Assembly: GCA_016281895.1 (NCBI GenBank)
Contig: JAEEJM010000021.1
Span: forward strand, 1-35,160
From: Clostridiales bacterium
GTDB lineage: Bacteria; Bacillota; Clostridia; Oscillospirales; CAG-272
Direction: 5' to 3'
DNA length: 35,160 bases
Shown here: in pieces, positions 24,070-33,402 of the stretch
Layout: each line of letters begins with the position of its first letter
Numbering within the stretch: the first letter of the stretch is position 1
Made by a program: the position numbers and the translations under genes
The notes under the pieces: model-generated
The model's database searches: none
Seen by the model: only the letters and a program-made list of their open reading frames with translations
Told to the model about the DNA's origin: nothing

Positions 24070-24924
24070 ATGAAACGGGAAAGAAACAGAAAAAAGACGG
24101 TGTTCCTCATCGTCTGGCTGGCGATCATAGTCGCGCTGCTGGCGGCGGTCCTGATCATCGGACTTCCGGGGGAGCGCGCGGAGACGATAGCCGAGACGAT
24201 GAAGGACGGAGTGCTTCACGACCGCAACCGCGTAAGTCTGTTCGGTCTCCTGGACGTCAGTCCGGCCCTGATCTCAGCCTTCGCGGTAACGGGGATACTG
24301 CTCTTCTGCGCGCTGCTCATAAGGATCTTCGCCGTACCAAGGTTCCGGACCGTGCCCGGCAGGTTCCAGGCGGCCGTCGAAAAGCTCGTCGGCTTCTTCG
24401 GGGACCTGGCCGCGTCCAACAGCCCCCACAAGACGGGGTTCGTCGCCGCCTACATTTTCAGCGCCGGCGTCTACGTGTTCTTCAGCACGCTGTTCGAGCT
24501 CTTCGGCTTCCAGGCGGTGTCGACGGAAGGGACGTCGGTCACGCTGCCGGCGCCGCTGGCCGACATCAACGGCGCGCTGGCCATGGGCATCATGTCCTTC
24601 CTGGTGATACTCGTCGCCGGCTTTGCCGTAAACGGCGTCAAGGGCGGACTGCGGGTGCTGAAGGACTTCTCGCTGCCCGTCTCGATGAGCTTCAGGATCT
24701 TCGGAGCCCTGCTGAGCGGCCTCATGGTGACCGAGCTCGTCTACTACTACAACGCACTGAGCTTCCTGGTCCCCGTCGTGGTGGCCGTCCTGTTCACCCT
24801 GCTCCACGCGATAATACAGACCTACGTCCTCACAACGCTTGTATCCGTGTTCTACGGCGAGGCTGTCGAGCCCCCGGCGCCCTCTGAAAAAAAGAAAAAA
24901 CTGAAAGGTAACATAAAGTCATGA
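24070..24924 (+). CDS. atpB: F0F1 ATP synthase subunit a
   Basis: Polytopic membrane protein in first position of the operon. It carries an essential-Arg-type helix (SMSFRIFGALLSG) and a C-terminal HAIIQTYVLTTL helix. Confidence 0.88.
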   Translation: MKRERNRKKTVFLIVWLAIIVALLAAVLIIGLPGERAETIAETMKDGVLHDRNRVSLFGLLDVSPALISAFAVTGILLFCALLIRIFAVPRFRTVPGRFQAAVEKLVGFFGDLAASNSPHKTGFVAAYIFSAGVYVFFSTLFELFGFQAVSTEGTSVTLPAPLADINGALAMGIMSFLVILVAGFAVNGVKGGLRVLKDFSLPVSMSFRIFGALLSGLMVTELVYYYNALSFLVPVVVAVLFTLLHAIIQTYVLTTLVSVFYGEAVEPPAPSEKKKKLKGNIKS

Positions 24925-25352
24925 AAAGACAGGTCGTGAAAACGCTGTCAGCCGCGGTCGCCGCGCTGATCGTCATACTCTCCGCGCTCTGCTTCTCCGC
25001 AGCCGCCTCGTCCGACGCGAACGTACCTCCGGTGGAGGGCGAATTCGTCCCGGCCGGCTCCGGCGCCCCCGAGGGCGAACAGGCCGGCAGACCCGAGCCC
25101 GGACAGGAGGGCGGATCCGGAGAAGGAGCCACGGGCTCCAAGGCCATGGCCACCGCCATACTGCTCGGCGCCGCCTGCGCGGCCGGAGCCATCGGGATGG
25201 GCCTTGCCATAAGCAAGAGCACCGAGAGCATGGCCCGCCAGCCCGAGGCCGCCGGAAAGATCAACTCGGCCATGATGCTGGGCCTCGTGTTCATCGAGAC
25301 CGTCGTCATATACGCCCTCTTCGTGGCCATCCTCATCATATTCGTACTCTGA
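24921..25352 (+). CDS. atpE: F0F1 ATP synthase subunit c with an approximately 75-aa N-terminal extension
   Basis: The C-terminal 68 aa form a canonical c hairpin (GAIGMGLA...ARQPEA...FIETVVIYALF, with the carboxylate Glu). The ATG overlaps the atpB stop (ATGA). The N-terminus has a signal-peptide-like helix followed by a Gly/Pro/Glu linker. Confidence 0.85.
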   Translation: MKRQVVKTLSAAVAALIVILSALCFSAAASSDANVPPVEGEFVPAGSGAPEGEQAGRPEPGQEGGSGEGATGSKAMATAILLGAACAAGAIGMGLAISKSTESMARQPEAAGKINSAMMLGLVFIETVVIYALFVAILIIFVL

Positions 25353-25370: not shown

Positions 25371-25892
25371 ATGCCGCTGAACATCGATATCGTGCAGATA
25401 CTTCTGCACATGCTGAATTTCGCAATACTCGCGGGCGGTCTGACGCTGCTGCTCTTCTCTCCCGTCTCAAAATTCCTTGAGGAACGCCGGCGCCACTTCG
25501 AGGAGCTCGAGCGCGAAAACGCCGAAAAGGCCGCCGAGGCGGAACGGCTCCGCGAGGAGTACGAGCGCAAGCTCGCCGAGGCCGGCGACGAGATCGACAG
25601 GATGCGCGCCGAGGCCGAAAAGGAGGCCGCCGAGACCGCCAGACGCTACCTCGACTCCGCGAAAGAAAAGGCCGGAGAGCTCGTCTCGGGCGCCGAGGCC
25701 GAGGCCGAGGCGCGAAAGGCCCAGATCCTCGAATCGGCCCAGACCGAGATAAGCGAACTGGTCCTCACCGCCGCTCAGAAGCTGATCAGCTCCTCCGGCG
25801 ACGAGGAGCACACCAGGGCACTCTACGACGCCTTCCTGGAGGAGGCCGCGGGCGAGGAGCGCGCCTCCGCGGAGAGATCCGATGGGCGCTGA
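25371..25892 (+). CDS. atpF: F0F1 ATP synthase subunit b
   Basis: An N-terminal TM helix is followed by a long charged E/A/R/K coiled coil. It is 173 aa. Confidence 0.88.
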   Translation: MPLNIDIVQILLHMLNFAILAGGLTLLLFSPVSKFLEERRRHFEELERENAEKAAEAERLREEYERKLAEAGDEIDRMRAEAEKEAAETARRYLDSAKEKAGELVSGAEAEAEARKAQILESAQTEISELVLTAAQKLISSSGDEEHTRALYDAFLEEAAGEERASAERSDGR

Positions 25893-27663
25893 GGAATTCG
25901 ACCGCACCGAACCGGCCGGGGAGCCCCTGAGAGTCGAGATACGGTGCCTGGTCCCCCCGACCGATGAGCAGAAGGTCCGCATACGCGACTTCATGTGCCG
26001 CAGGTACGGCCGCTCCGACGTCAATCTGGCCGTCGTGCGCGATCCCTCCGTCGCCGAGGGCTTCAACATCTTCGTCGGCGACGACAACTACGACTGGACG
26101 GCCCTCGGCCGCGTCCGGCAGCTGAGAAGAAAGATCCAGCAGTCCTCCCTCAGGAAGGGCGGCCGGGACTTCATATCGCTGCTGCGCGAGGACATCGAGA
26201 GCTTCACCCTCGACGCGGGCTACCAGAAGGTCGGAAAGGTGCTGACCGTAAGCGACAGCATTGCCGTGACCGAGGGCCTCGCCGAGGCCGCGTACGGCAC
26301 CGTGGTCCTGTTCGAATGCGGGATCAAGGGTATGGTGCAGGACATCCGCGCGGACGGCACCACCGGCATAATCCTCTTCGGAGACCCGTCCGAGATCACG
26401 GCCGGCTCGAGGCTCGTCGACACCGGCCGCACCGCAGGCATCCCAATAAGCAACCGGGTCCTCGGGCGCATGATCGACCCTCTGGGCAGCCCGGTCGACG
26501 GAAAGGGGCCCGTCGAGGCCAAAAAATACTATCCCATTGAGCGGCCCGCGCCCGGCATTATGGAGAGGCGGCCCGTCAGCCGTCCGCTCGAGACCGGTAT
26601 CATGGCCATCGACTCTATGTTCCCCATCGGGCGCGGCCAGAGGGAGCTCATAATAGGCGACCGCCAGACCGGAAAGACCTCCGTCGCGGTCGACACGATA
26701 CTGAACCAGAAGGGAAAGAACGTCGTCTGCGTCTACGTGGCCATAAGCCAGAAGGCCAGCTCCGTCGCCTCGGTCATCCGCACGCTCGAGGCCGCAGGCG
26801 CCATGGAGTACACGGTCGTCGTCACGTCCCCGGCCAGCGACCCCGCCGCCATGCAGTACATCGCGCCGTACACGGGCTGCACCGTGGCCGAATACTTCAT
26901 GCGGCACGGCAGGGACACGCTCGTCATATACGACGACCTGTCGAAGCACGCCGTGGCCTACAGGACCATCAGCCTGCTGCTGGGCCGCGCGCCCGGCCGC
27001 GAGGCCTACCCCGGCGACGTCTTCTATCTCCACTCGAGGCTGCTGGAGCGCTCGGCCCAGCTCTCCGACGAGCTCGGCGGCGGAAGCATGACCGCCCTGC
27101 CGATAGTCGAGACACAGGCCGGAGACGTCTCCGCGTACATACCGACCAACATCATCTCCATAACGGACGGGCAGATCTTCCTTGACAGCGAGCAGTTCCA
27201 CTCGGGCCAGCGGCCGGCGGTGAACGTCGGTCTGTCGGTGTCCCGCGTCGGCGGCGCCGCACAGACGGACGTAATGAAAAAGTCGGTCGGCTCGCTGCGG
27301 CTCGACCTTGCCCAGTTCCGCGAGATGCAGGTGTTCTCGCAGTTCGGCAGCGAGCTCGACGAGCAGACCGAGAAACAGCTTCGCCACGGCAGCGCCCTCA
27401 TGCAGCTGCTGAGGCAGCCCAACCGCAGGCCGCTGGAACTCTGGGAGCAGGCGGTGGTCCTGCTGGCCGCCAGAGAGCGGCTGTTCAGCTCCATGCCCGA
27501 GGCACGGGTGCCGGAGGCCAAGCTCGACCTGCTCACCTGGTTCCGCCAGAACCGCAGTCTGCTCATCATCAGCATTCAGAACTGCAGGAAGTTCACTCCC
27601 GAGCTCGGCGCAGAAGTGACCGGGGCCGCTAAGGAGTTCTTCGCGTCGCACAGATATCAGTAA
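25882..27663 (+). CDS. atpA: F0F1 ATP synthase alpha subunit fused to a delta (OSCP) C-terminal-domain-like N-terminal segment
   Basis: Residues from about 93 onward are a standard alpha subunit (GDRQTGKTS Walker A, full length about 500 aa). Residues about 15-90 (VEIRCLVPPTDEQKVRIRDFMCRRYGRSDVNLAVVRDPSVAEGFNIFVGDDNYDWTALGRVRQLRRKI) align by eye with the C-terminal part of bacterial delta. The operon has no separate atpH. Confidence 0.85.
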   Translation: MGAEEFDRTEPAGEPLRVEIRCLVPPTDEQKVRIRDFMCRRYGRSDVNLAVVRDPSVAEGFNIFVGDDNYDWTALGRVRQLRRKIQQSSLRKGGRDFISLLREDIESFTLDAGYQKVGKVLTVSDSIAVTEGLAEAAYGTVVLFECGIKGMVQDIRADGTTGIILFGDPSEITAGSRLVDTGRTAGIPISNRVLGRMIDPLGSPVDGKGPVEAKKYYPIERPAPGIMERRPVSRPLETGIMAIDSMFPIGRGQRELIIGDRQTGKTSVAVDTILNQKGKNVVCVYVAISQKASSVASVIRTLEAAGAMEYTVVVTSPASDPAAMQYIAPYTGCTVAEYFMRHGRDTLVIYDDLSKHAVAYRTISLLLGRAPGREAYPGDVFYLHSRLLERSAQLSDELGGGSMTALPIVETQAGDVSAYIPTNIISITDGQIFLDSEQFHSGQRPAVNVGLSVSRVGGAAQTDVMKKSVGSLRLDLAQFREMQVFSQFGSELDEQTEKQLRHGSALMQLLRQPNRRPLELWEQAVVLLAARERLFSSMPEARVPEAKLDLLTWFRQNRSLLIISIQNCRKFTPELGAEVTGAAKEFFASHRYQ

Positions 27664-30422
<2,759 letters not shown>

Positions 30423-30564: not shown

Positions 30565-33402
30565 TCAGCCCTCCGGGACCACTACCCCGTCAGTGCAGAC
30601 GACGCTTTGCGTAAACGGGAAGAAATCGTTGACAGCGACAGAGACCCTGACCCATTCCTTCACCGTTCCGTCGTAATCAATAACAGAGAGAGACGGACAA
30701 CCGCCGAAAACGTTCAGGCCAATATGCGTCAGGGTCCCCGGCAGCGACACTTCCGACAGCGAATGGCAATCTCTGAAAGCAAACTCATCGATACTCTTCA
30801 GGCCTTCTCCGATCACGACCTTGCGCAAAGACGTACATCCCCAGAACGCACTTTGAGACAGATTGCTTATCCCTCCCGGGATCGTGACCGAATCGAGGGA
30901 TGTGCAGGATGAGAAGGCGGACGGCGAGATGGTCTTCACCCCGCTCGGGATCGTGATCTCCTTCATAGAAGAGCACTGGTCAAATGCATTTGCCCCGATA
31001 GAGATCAGCGACTCCGGCAGAACCACCCTCTCCAGAGAACTGCATCCCCAAAAAGCGCGTTCAGGAATCAAACGGATTCCGTCGGGAACCACGACTTCCT
31101 TCAGCGAGACACAATTGCGGAACATCTCTCTTCCAGAGTACTCGGTCGTTGTCAATCCCGCCGGAAGAATCATTCTTTCAAGAGACCCGCAGAAACTGAA
31201 GGCGGAATCACCGATACTGTTGACCCCATCCGGGAGAACGAGTTCGGTCAGTGAACCGCAGTAACAGAACGCATTCCTGCCGATGACTGTAAGAGTTCCC
31301 GGCAGGCTGACGGTCCTGAGCGAGACGCACGAGGAAAAAGCTCCGGTGATTTCCAAAAGCCCGTCGGGCAGCACCACGGTTTTCAGACTGCTGCAGTTGC
31401 TGAAAGTATCGGTGAGGACAAGGACCCCCTCGGGTACAGTCACGCTTTCAAGCGAAGAGCACCCGTAAAAAGTTTCTTTCAGATTTGTATATCCGGATCT
31501 GCCGATGGTCACATTCTTCAGCTTTTTACAATCCCGGAAAGCCCCTTCCCCGAGCTTTCCCCCGTCGGGGACCGTCACAGATGACAGCGATGTGCCGGAG
31601 AAGGCAAAACCGCCTATACTGACAACGCCCGACGGTATCGACGGATCGAACTCGTAACAGGCATAGAACGCCTTGTTCCCGACCGATGTCAGAGTAGCCG
31701 GAAGCTCCAGATCCTTCAGCGAGCCGCATGCGTAAAACAGGGAATCAGCCACTGCCGTGATACCTGCGGGCAGCACGGCCCGCTCAAGGGCTGTGCACGA
31801 TGCGAATGCTCCGGACGAGAGCGTTTTAACGCTGTCGGGAACGGTCACTTCCTTAAGAGAGGTGCACTTTCGGAACGCGTCGGCTCCGATGGCCGCGAGG
31901 CCGTCCGGAAGGCTGACCGAACTCAGCGACGTGCAGCCGCTGAACGCGGCCGCGCCGATCTCCCCGACTTCGCCTCCGAACACGACCTTGTACAGACCCG
32001 TCGCTCCCGAGCATATGTATGCCGGTACTTTTGACCCGGAGAACGTGATCTCCCTGATCGTCTTCAGGTTGAAAAACACCGATTTTGCGTCCTTCGGGCC
32101 GACATCGGACCGGTAAACGATCTTCTCGAGAGAGGAATCGCGGAACGTGTCGGCATCGATCCTGAAAACGCTCCCGGGTATGGTTATTTCCTTGAGAGAC
32201 TGACAGCCGCTGAAAACCAGAGCCTGGATAGCCAGGGACGATGAGACGTCCGATCTCAGCTCCACGCTCCGGAGAGACGGGCAGTCGGCAAATGCTCTTC
32301 TGCATATGAGCGTGACCGTCGACGGGACCACTATGCTCTCCACCGCCGGGTTTCCGGCCAGGGCTTCGGGATAGATCTGATTCACGGTGAAGCCGTTGAC
32401 CTCGGACGGTATGACCACCTTGGTGCCGGAAAACGTACCGTATCCGATAAGGCGGCAGGTCTTTTCCGACTTGCTGAAATAACCGAAGAGCAGCCCCGAT
32501 CCGTCGCTGGCCGTCTCATTGACCTCTTTGAGCGCTCCGCAGATCTTGCAGGCATAGACCGCGTTTCCCAGATCTTCCGATCCGTGAAGGTATTCATATG
32601 AATGCTCGGTCGACTTCGGTATCTGGACCTGGGCCTCGATCACCGCGCCGCACACCGAACAGTGGCTGCCCTTCGTCAGGCCGGGCTCGAGACAGGTCGC
32701 CGGCACGGCTTTATCGGTCACGACCGTGTGTCCCGCCGGGATCGCAACGGTCTCGGTCTTTCCGCACGCGCACGACCTGGTCTTTTCACCGGGCCGGGTG
32801 CACGTGGCCTTTTTTACGGTGACCCATTCGCCGAACGAGCAGACATGGACCGGCTGACCTTCGGTCACAGGCACGGGGCCCGTTGTGTCATCCGTCTCTG
32901 TCTGCACGAGACATGTCTCTGTCACGGGTTCCCTGCCTGTCTGCGGCGCTTCCCCGGTTTCGGACACCTCAGAGATCTGCGGTGCGCCTGACGTATCGCC
33001 GGCCGTCTCGGGCCCGGTCAGGATCACAGTACAGGGAAAACTCTCGCCGTCGTCGCCTGAGCCGATGTCAGAAACACCGCCGCTCTCCGGCTCGGTGTCC
33101 GGGGAAGGCGCGGCCGTCGCGGCCGGATCCGACGACGGATCGGAAGCCGCCGGGCGGTCTATTGCGCCAGTCCCGTTTTCCGGCACGAAGGACATGCGCG
33201 ACGACACGGCCATGCCGGCCGCGACCATGACAGCCAGGACCGCGGTCACCGCCACGACTGCCAGCACGGCCCTCAGCACGGGACGGCCGGCCCTGACGGG
33301 CGCGCAATGCGCCGACGACGAGGCATCTGTAAACTGTACGTCGATCTCCGACATGGCGTCGATGAATTCTTCAGCCTTGCTTCTCTTTCCTTCAGTCTTC
33401 AT
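30565..33402 (-). CDS. Membrane-anchored BspA-type leucine-rich-repeat protein (945 aa) with an anti-sigma-like N-terminus
   Basis: It has a short cytoplasmic N-terminus (EEFIDAMSEIDVQF), one TM helix, a low-complexity linker and Cys-rich modules (ATCTRPGEKTRSCACG; ATCLEPGLTKGSHCSVCG). Many approximately 23-aa repeats of the type F..C.SL..V.IP..V..IG..AF follow. The start overlaps the upstream gene by 11 nt. Confidence 0.8.
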   Translation of the reverse strand: MKTEGKRSKAEEFIDAMSEIDVQFTDASSSAHCAPVRAGRPVLRAVLAVVAVTAVLAVMVAAGMAVSSRMSFVPENGTGAIDRPAASDPSSDPAATAAPSPDTEPESGGVSDIGSGDDGESFPCTVILTGPETAGDTSGAPQISEVSETGEAPQTGREPVTETCLVQTETDDTTGPVPVTEGQPVHVCSFGEWVTVKKATCTRPGEKTRSCACGKTETVAIPAGHTVVTDKAVPATCLEPGLTKGSHCSVCGAVIEAQVQIPKSTEHSYEYLHGSEDLGNAVYACKICGALKEVNETASDGSGLLFGYFSKSEKTCRLIGYGTFSGTKVVIPSEVNGFTVNQIYPEALAGNPAVESIVVPSTVTLICRRAFADCPSLRSVELRSDVSSSLAIQALVFSGCQSLKEITIPGSVFRIDADTFRDSSLEKIVYRSDVGPKDAKSVFFNLKTIREITFSGSKVPAYICSGATGLYKVVFGGEVGEIGAAAFSGCTSLSSVSLPDGLAAIGADAFRKCTSLKEVTVPDSVKTLSSGAFASCTALERAVLPAGITAVADSLFYACGSLKDLELPATLTSVGNKAFYACYEFDPSIPSGVVSIGGFAFSGTSLSSVTVPDGGKLGEGAFRDCKKLKNVTIGRSGYTNLKETFYGCSSLESVTVPEGVLVLTDTFSNCSSLKTVVLPDGLLEITGAFSSCVSLRTVSLPGTLTVIGRNAFCYCGSLTELVLPDGVNSIGDSAFSFCGSLERMILPAGLTTTEYSGREMFRNCVSLKEVVVPDGIRLIPERAFWGCSSLERVVLPESLISIGANAFDQCSSMKEITIPSGVKTISPSAFSSCTSLDSVTIPGGISNLSQSAFWGCTSLRKVVIGEGLKSIDEFAFRDCHSLSEVSLPGTLTHIGLNVFGGCPSLSVIDYDGTVKEWVRVSVAVNDFFPFTQSVVCTDGVVVPEG

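Follow-up and report, generated by a model that had tools for sequence, protein, structure and literature searches.

This locus raises the question of whether an F-type ATP synthase whose only delta-like module is carried by the alpha subunit is built with one peripheral stalk or with several. The window analyzed here is the whole 35,160-nucleotide stretch of contig JAEEJM010000021.1 (assembly GCA_016281895.1) from a Clostridiales bacterium of the order Oscillospirales, the source being a metagenome-assembled genome (MAG) of 194 contigs that is 86% complete. On its plus strand the window harbors a compact F-type operon in which a 593-amino-acid (593-aa) open reading frame (ORF) lies between atpF and atpG. 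The ORF calls give the order atpB-atpE-atpF-fused ORF-atpG-atpD-atpC, the same order that an earlier note on this DNA had given. The ORF is a genuine, selected joining of a b2-docking delta C-terminal domain (delta-C) to a complete F1 alpha subunit. That the fusion is real and works as the connector of the stator is close to certain; that the native enzyme carries two or more stalks is plausible, at a shade under an even chance.

A delta C-terminal domain in front of alpha

Three independent lines, namely sequence, predicted structure and fold search, identify the N-terminal module of the fused protein as delta's C-terminal domain. The Pfam OSCP model (PF00213) aligns at positions 103–171 of its 172 with residues 16–84, scoring above its cut-off of 22.3 bits both with a 113-aa N-terminal piece (30.9 bits) and with the entire ORF (26.9 bits). 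A phmmer search of the PDB with residues 1–113 has 9jc1_I as its best match and also retrieves 6n2y_I (PS3 delta), the mycobacterial b-delta fusion and Chloroflexus delta. A profile built from 18 clade members matches delta/OSCP chains exclusively, the best PDB match being the Chloroflexus delta C-domain (9ITJ, 6.3e-5). The AlphaFold2 model of residues 1–112 consists of a strand (16–22), a helix (28–42), three further strands (47–53, 60–65 and 68–73) and a second helix (74–88). This four-stranded sheet with two helices is the description given for delta-C in PMC12002316. The predicted local distance difference test score (pLDDT) is 74–84 for most of delta-C, but only in the low 60s for its final helix. 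In a Foldseek search of the PDB with this domain model, the top 44 matches are all F-type delta/OSCP chains (best 6n2y_I, E 1.9e-5). With the full-length model the longest Foldseek alignment is to 9JC1, whose chain I is the sole PDB chain collinear over the junction (query 25–570 against chain 13–558). The full-length model has a mean pLDDT of 68 and poor domain placement, and is uninformative on the geometry of docking in cis.

The remainder of the ORF is a complete alpha. The NCBIfam model for atpA, TIGR00962, matches residues 96–588 with 686.8 bits (cut-off 484.45), all three Pfam alpha domains match as well, and the alpha N-terminal helix, ISLLREDI, is kept in the clade alignment. What is missing is the N-terminal bundle of delta. 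Positions 1–102 of the OSCP model have no match in the fused ORF, where only 15 variable residues precede delta-C, and the fused protein is therefore not a full delta. No gene stands between b and the fusion either. The earlier note had described the first approximately 92 residues as the C-terminal part of delta, the rest as a complete alpha, and the delta N-terminal bundle as having no counterpart in the operon; the profile, phmmer, AlphaFold2 and Foldseek results agree with it on each point.

An OSCP search of the 86%-complete genome found no second atpH. Elsewhere in the genome the OSCP model matches a single ORF, at 14.8 bits on contig C183. This ORF encodes subunit E of a V/A-type ATPase, and genes for a double-hairpin K subunit and for subunit C/d flank it. 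It was rejected as a separate atpH, since it belongs to the V/A-type operon. The alpha/beta nucleotide-binding model matches the alpha and beta of the window and the A and B subunits of the V/A-type enzyme, and nothing else in the genome. The fusion is therefore the organism's sole F-type alpha and sole delta-like module, which agrees with the view in the earlier note that every alpha copy carries a stalk-binding module.

The fusion is not confined to this genome. A search with residues 1–140 returned 201 proteins, nearly all of 590–600 aa and bearing precomputed PF00213 and alpha domains. A scan of one genome per species found 63 loci, so that the fusion, in the same operon, is known from over 200 proteins and from 63 species or more. 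The loci come from uncultured gut and rumen Clostridia, labeled Faecousia, Acutalibacteraceae, Oscillospiraceae, Ruminococcus sp., Clostridium sp. CAG:138 and, in many MAGs, 'Lachnospiraceae bacterium'. At every locus of sufficient length the order is a-c-b-fusion-gamma-beta-epsilon, with nothing between b and the fusion and no atpH. All 57 clade members have exactly 51 aa between the DW motif of delta and the alpha barrel, without an indel. Column identity, averaged over 31 homologues, is 0.74 in the delta module and 0.75 in the alpha N-helix (the N-terminal tail and the linker are given in Table 1). It reaches 0.88 for delta residues 54–85, with the motif GFNIFVGDDNYDW, and within alpha the nucleotide-binding domain has 0.91 and the C-domain 0.66. 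Given that the identity of the delta module is near that of the alpha core, purifying selection on it is almost as strong. A library search with the 113-aa N-terminus gave 332 matches, which are mainly contig-truncated fragments and unusable as a census. In clusters at 50% identity, full-length fusions may also sit hidden behind plain-alpha representatives.

Two explanations would remove the fusion or dilute it. According to one, atpA was joined to a short delta gene in assembly or annotation, through the loss of a stop codon or through a frameshift. The fragmented state of the source MAG speaks for such an artefact. However, the same fusion recurs in independent assemblies across the 63 species, the identical protein is recorded from 5 contigs, and the junction lies in a single frame, free of indels and with strong conservation on either side. 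An artefact is therefore extremely improbable, and a frameshift or missing-stop origin was rejected on the grounds of conservation across the clade and a constant junction. According to the other, two proteins would arise from the one ORF by internal initiation or by linker cleavage, giving plain alpha together with either the delta-alpha protein or free delta-C, so that about one delta module per complex would be restored. Linker residues 86–97 are variable in sequence and predicted to be disordered (pLDDT <50), and in 8 clade loci an in-frame Met coincides with the first residue of the alpha N-helix or lies close to it, both of which would suit this explanation. Against it, the first in-frame ATG, GTG or TTG past the delta module in the window is the GTG of V120, already within the alpha beta-barrel; the earlier note, too, had found no in-frame ATG or GTG at the junction for a separate alpha. 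Among the 57 clade members, no conserved internal start for a plain alpha was found in the 51-residue junction, 11 lack any candidate start there, and a Shine-Dalgarno-like site is missing before most of the candidates. A conserved cleavage motif was not found, and the invariant length of the junction argues for a structurally constrained covalent link. Judged from the aligned junctions, internal initiation is not conserved across the clade; the linker may be processed by proteolysis. The two-protein explanation as a whole is improbable.

Engineered, published and related architectures

The closest counterpart of the fused protein was designed. Ueno et al. (Nat Commun 2025; PMC12229609) deleted residues 2–104 of PS3 delta and joined residues 105–178 to the N-terminus of alpha. 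The docking site for b2 is formed by delta-C and one alpha N-helix, and the delta N-domain on the three-fold axis breaks the symmetry (PMC12229609, PMC12002316). The rationale of Ueno et al. was that the N-domain in this position restricts the enzyme to one stalk. The engineered enzyme carried as many as three b2 stalks, every one of them with an a-subunit of its own, and averaged about two stalks with an H+/ATP ratio of 5.8. It synthesized ATP at a proton-motive force insufficient for the wild type. The Discussion of that paper also names natural delta-alpha fusions without the delta N-domain (Acidaminococcus fermentans, UniProt G4Q3K6 and A0A1I2C5T3), and its authors grade a multi-stalk structure of the A. 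fermentans enzyme as 'highly likely'. Fusions in which delta is present with 'only its C-terminal part' at the alpha N-terminus are likewise listed by Mulkidjanian, Kuchevskiy and Dibrova (bioRxiv 10.64898/2026.10.01.756066). The architecture has thus been published already, as an observation from bioinformatics accompanied by a multi-stalk hypothesis, and the window brings to this named class one well-documented member together with a large clade. The earlier note had called the stator architecture unusual; its description of the layout holds, and the architecture is not new. Its expectation of a single b-dimer stalk conflicts with the engineered PS3 enzyme, in which up to three are found, and with Chloroflexus aurantiacus, whose enzyme (b4-delta2-a2-c10, with a shortened delta N-domain; PDB 9ITJ) has two stalks and two a-subunits (PMC12002316).

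The window protein and the engineered deltaDeltaN-alpha of PS3 (PDB 9JC1) both carry delta from about 105 to 178 alone, placed in frame before an alpha that keeps its N-helix, and both lack the delta N-domain; like the PS3 design, the window organism has no separate delta in its 86%-complete genome. They differ in that the window protein is natural, with a 12-residue linker of fixed length, whereas the linker in 9JC1 is of a designed Gly/Ser type. Identity in the delta part is about 25–30%. Epsilon is full length in the window operon, unlike in the engineered enzyme, which is without the epsilon C-domain. The stalk number has been measured for the engineered enzyme. With the natural fusions in print the window shares a delta C-part at the alpha N-terminus, the lack of a separate delta and the multi-stalk hypothesis. 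In contrast to them, as far as their published descriptions go, its clade is a large group of uncultured Oscillospiraceae-like Clostridia with a signal-peptide-like c subunit. The Chloroflexus enzyme is likewise a natural F-type one, and there a reduced delta N-domain accompanies an additional stalk and a-subunit. Chloroflexus delta is a separate 157-aa protein whose shortened N-domain dimerizes atop F1 and gives exactly two stalks, whereas in the window the N-domain is wholly absent and the module sits covalently on each alpha.

Two other known types were considered. Mycobacterial b-delta (PDB 7JG5, chain d) is also a fusion of delta with a stator subunit, and the delta-C folds match. It joins b to a full-length delta and is present once per complex, whereas in the window b is a separate 173-aa protein, the partner is alpha and the module would be present three times. 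This type was rejected on account of the separate b ORF and of a score of only 13.4 bits with the B/delta model NF009961. The N-ATPase, an F-type variant that also lacks a separate delta gene and is often accessory, has an operon that opens with the beta and epsilon genes (PMC2881411). It was rejected in view of the canonical order in the window and a TIGR03324 score of 569 against a cut-off of 750.5.

A survey of 60 relatives within the same order found operons of canonical type whose delta has 180 aa, fusions of delta-C to alpha and a number of other architectures. One genome (G050; locus L096:4016-6034(+)) encodes a 672-aa fusion of full-length delta to alpha that matches OSCP positions 12–172, and another (G041) has a separate short delta of 159 aa. 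Triple fusions of 753–790 aa, in which a b membrane helix and coiled coil is followed by delta-C and alpha, occur in G043 (L085:2806-5067(-)), G008 (L087:4964-7336(-)) and G030 (L089:4962-7241(-)), of which G008 and G030 belong to the genus of the window. Pfam ATP-synt_B, OSCP 98–172 and the alpha domains match these proteins, and a free b of 141–147 aa precedes each of them. As predicted from their domain order, each alpha would bear its own membrane-anchored stalk arm. The alpha of L087 has GDRQIGKT in place of GDRQTGKT as the Walker A motif of its non-catalytic site.

In a maximum likelihood tree of alpha cores with a beta outgroup, all fused forms form one clade with canonical L008 and the short-delta operon L084, with 99% support in the Shimodaira-Hasegawa-like approximate likelihood ratio test (SH-aLRT). 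This clade stands apart from canonical alphas of the same genus. The window belongs to a clade with 100% support that comprises 31 delta-C/alpha fusions and the full-length fusion L096, and the triple fusions are a 100% clade of their own. L096 attaches at the unresolved base of the window clade, a placement compatible with a history in which fusion came first and the N-domain was lost later. A census of 401 genomes of the order found an OSCP match in 202, including about 10 full-length delta-alpha fusions (open frames of 670–714 aa). About 60 of the 401 have only a weak OSCP match of C-domain type, an approximate figure taken from the best E-value per genome among the matches listed.

Some of these relatives show further variations on delta. 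In full-length delta-alpha fusions, three delta N-domains would have to fit on one F1 head. A 261-aa frame (G183:C94:24916-25644(-)) has a full OSCP match (1–172) with a second C-domain match (100–172) directly after it, and would encode a delta whose C-terminal domain is duplicated. In canonical operons of the same genus (L011–L014 and L016), delta and alpha lie in one frame with a stop and a short spacer between them, and a single tblastn alignment spans both. Given the shared frame, loss of the intervening stop or stops could yield a full-length fusion.

The c subunit also distinguishes the window clade. The window atpE carries an N-terminal extension of about 75 aa (24921–25146) that is signal-peptide-like. 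All listed c ORFs of the clade (loci L019–L094) are 115–230 aa long, with a basic stretch, a hydrophobic stretch, an AxA-like site and an acidic linker; in these features the extension resembles a Sec signal peptide. In canonical, full-fusion and triple-fusion operons, c is plain, 70–98 aa long and lacks the extension. A c subunit with a signal peptide may also occur in Aquifex aeolicus. No mention of a signal-peptide-like c was found in the accessible parts of Ueno et al. and Mulkidjanian et al. The ion site of the window c (25146–25352), and of the fused clade, has M32, E65, T66, V67 and Y70, an incomplete Na+ signature, and canonical operons of the same genus (L011–L016) have E32, E65, T66, T67 and Y70. 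The numbering is what we take to be that of Ilyobacter tartaricus c. In the V/A-type operon of the window genome (G000, contig C183; L002, L004 and L005), which comprises genes for K, E, C/d, A and B, the K subunit has TQG and a helix-4 Glu, presumably resembling the Na+ site of Enterococcus hirae. The F-type and V/A-type enzymes of this genome may use different ions.

One stalk or several

It is reasonable to propose that the covalent link would replace the contact between the delta N-domain and alpha. In the proposed mechanism, every alpha copy of the alpha3beta3 head, three in all, would tether a b2-joining delta-C through a linker of fixed length, and each delta-C would dock in cis on its own alpha, creating three equivalent b2 sites. 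Docking in cis is consistent with the fixed length of the linker. Without a delta N-domain on its axis the head would be three-fold symmetric, and up to three b2-a stalks could be accommodated, since the domain that limits ordinary enzymes to one stalk is absent, as it is in engineered PS3. No sequence feature appears to bar b2-a docking at all three sites. Complexes with mixed numbers of a-subunits in one membrane would cycle ions futilely, for which reason selection should favor a uniform state, and full occupancy would be the easiest such state to reach without a cap. The likeliest outcome would be the use of more than one stalk and more than one a-subunit, and the ions translocated per turn would equal the c-ring number multiplied by the number of a-subunits. 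Such an enzyme could synthesize ATP, or pump ions, at a low ion-motive force, the force that hydrolysis can generate being lowered as well, and would suit a fermenter that relies on Rnf; an RnfD gene is present on contig C180 (L082). The mechanism as a whole, with its multi-stalk step included, appears evenly balanced between right and wrong. Its strongest form is that the clade natively runs a three-fold enzyme with three b2 stalks, three a-subunits and one c-ring. N-domain loss, fusion and the signal-peptide c would then be parts of one redesign, the ion/ATP ratio would be two- to threefold that of ordinary enzymes, and fermenters that depend on Rnf could make ATP from very small ion gradients. 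This form is less likely than not.

Several observations weigh against a multi-stalk enzyme. The operon has a single a gene and a single b gene, and nothing in it points to threefold synthesis of either product. Full-length delta-alpha fusions (L096 and the approximately 10 census frames) keep the N-domain, and since full-length fusions group with the clade, fusion alone need not mean several stalks. In 15 carriers of the fusion, subunit I of a V/A-type enzyme is present in 11, and two of the remaining four (G033 and G040) have a canonical F-type operon beside the fused one; with a second rotary enzyme so often present, the fused enzyme may be accessory. In addition, no experimentally characterized natural fused enzyme was found in the literature. 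The alternative is a single-stalk enzyme in which the fusion merely swaps the grip of the delta N-domain on alpha for a tether, so that one delta-C binds b2-a and two are idle. Besides the gene count, it gains from the sister position of the full-length fusions with their N-domain cap, which suggests that fusion came first and that the later loss of the N-domain could reflect redundancy. Many of the engineered PS3 particles, moreover, had one or two stalks (PMC12229609). Yet those particles averaged about two stalks with a and b expression unchanged (PMC12229609). The identical free sites would be open to further b2-a docking, given the lack of any sequence bar to it. A uniform one-stalk state would also be hard to enforce without a cap, and mixed ion/ATP ratios would then cycle ions futilely. 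The triple fusions of the same genus, in which each alpha is given a membrane arm, speak against a single stalk as well. A single stalk is a serious contender, tentatively placed somewhat below an even chance.

Operon layout and what the fusion means

The coordinates of the operon are collected in Table 1. The ATG of the fused ORF lies 11 nt within atpF, whose TGA occupies 25890–25892, and is preceded by a Shine-Dalgarno-like site, so that the overlap and the site reported in the earlier note are both borne out. The ATG of atpE and the stop codon of atpB overlap too.

Table 1. Features of the F-type operon in the window and the basis on which each was assigned.
Feature	Position	Strand	Basis
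atpB, Fo subunit a, 284 aa	24070–24924	+	Pfam ATP-synt_A, 64.7 bits
atpE, subunit c, 143 aa; canonical hairpin from about 25146	24921–25352	+	Pfam ATP-synt_C on residues 77–139
atpF, subunit b, 173 aa; sole b gene of the operon	25371–25892	+	Pfam ATP-synt_B, 51.2 bits
GGAGAG, Shine-Dalgarno-like site, 5 nt 5' of the fused-ORF ATG	25871–25876	+	Read off the sequence
Fused delta-C/alpha ORF, 593 aa	25882–27663	+	ORF with Pfam and NCBIfam matches
Variable N-terminal tail, residues 1–15	25882–25926	+	Mean column identity 0.37, 31 homologues
Delta/OSCP C-terminal domain, residues 16–85	25927–26136	+	Pfam OSCP, AlphaFold2 domain model, Foldseek
Delta-C/alpha linker, residues 86–97; sequence variable, length constant	26137–26172	+	Column identity 0.55
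Complete F1 alpha including N-terminal helix, residues 98–593	26173–27663	+	TIGR00962 and Pfam ATP-synt_ab_N, ATP-synt_ab, ATP-synt_ab_C
atpG, gamma, 299 aa	27692–28591	+	ORF; same operon slot for homologues in 63 loci
atpD, beta, 472 aa, start set at MNTENRKTG	28588–30006	+	PF00006 match at 28993–29634
atpC, epsilon, 139 aa	30003–30422	+	ORF; slot conserved in related loci

Downstream of the operon lies a convergent ORF of 945 aa (30565–33402, minus strand). By eye, its translation shows a membrane segment at the N-terminus, modules rich in Cys and a long run of leucine-rich repeats.

To our knowledge, before 2025 a single stalk and a single a-subunit were taken to be common to all F-type enzymes. 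The ions used per ATP scale with the number of a-subunits, and this number therefore sets the lowest membrane potential at which ATP can be synthesized. The gain from the window itself is modest, and is one of context (the signal-peptide-like c, the fixed junction and the sister architectures) and not a new concept. These co-occurring features and sister architectures could guide the choice of organism for a decisive structure. If the fused enzymes of these abundant gut and rumen fermenters do have two or three a-subunits, a constant basic to bioenergetics would take another value in much of the anaerobic microbiome, and estimates of the ATP yield per Rnf-translocated ion would change. The fused enzymes would then also be evolved natural templates for engineered high-ratio enzymes.

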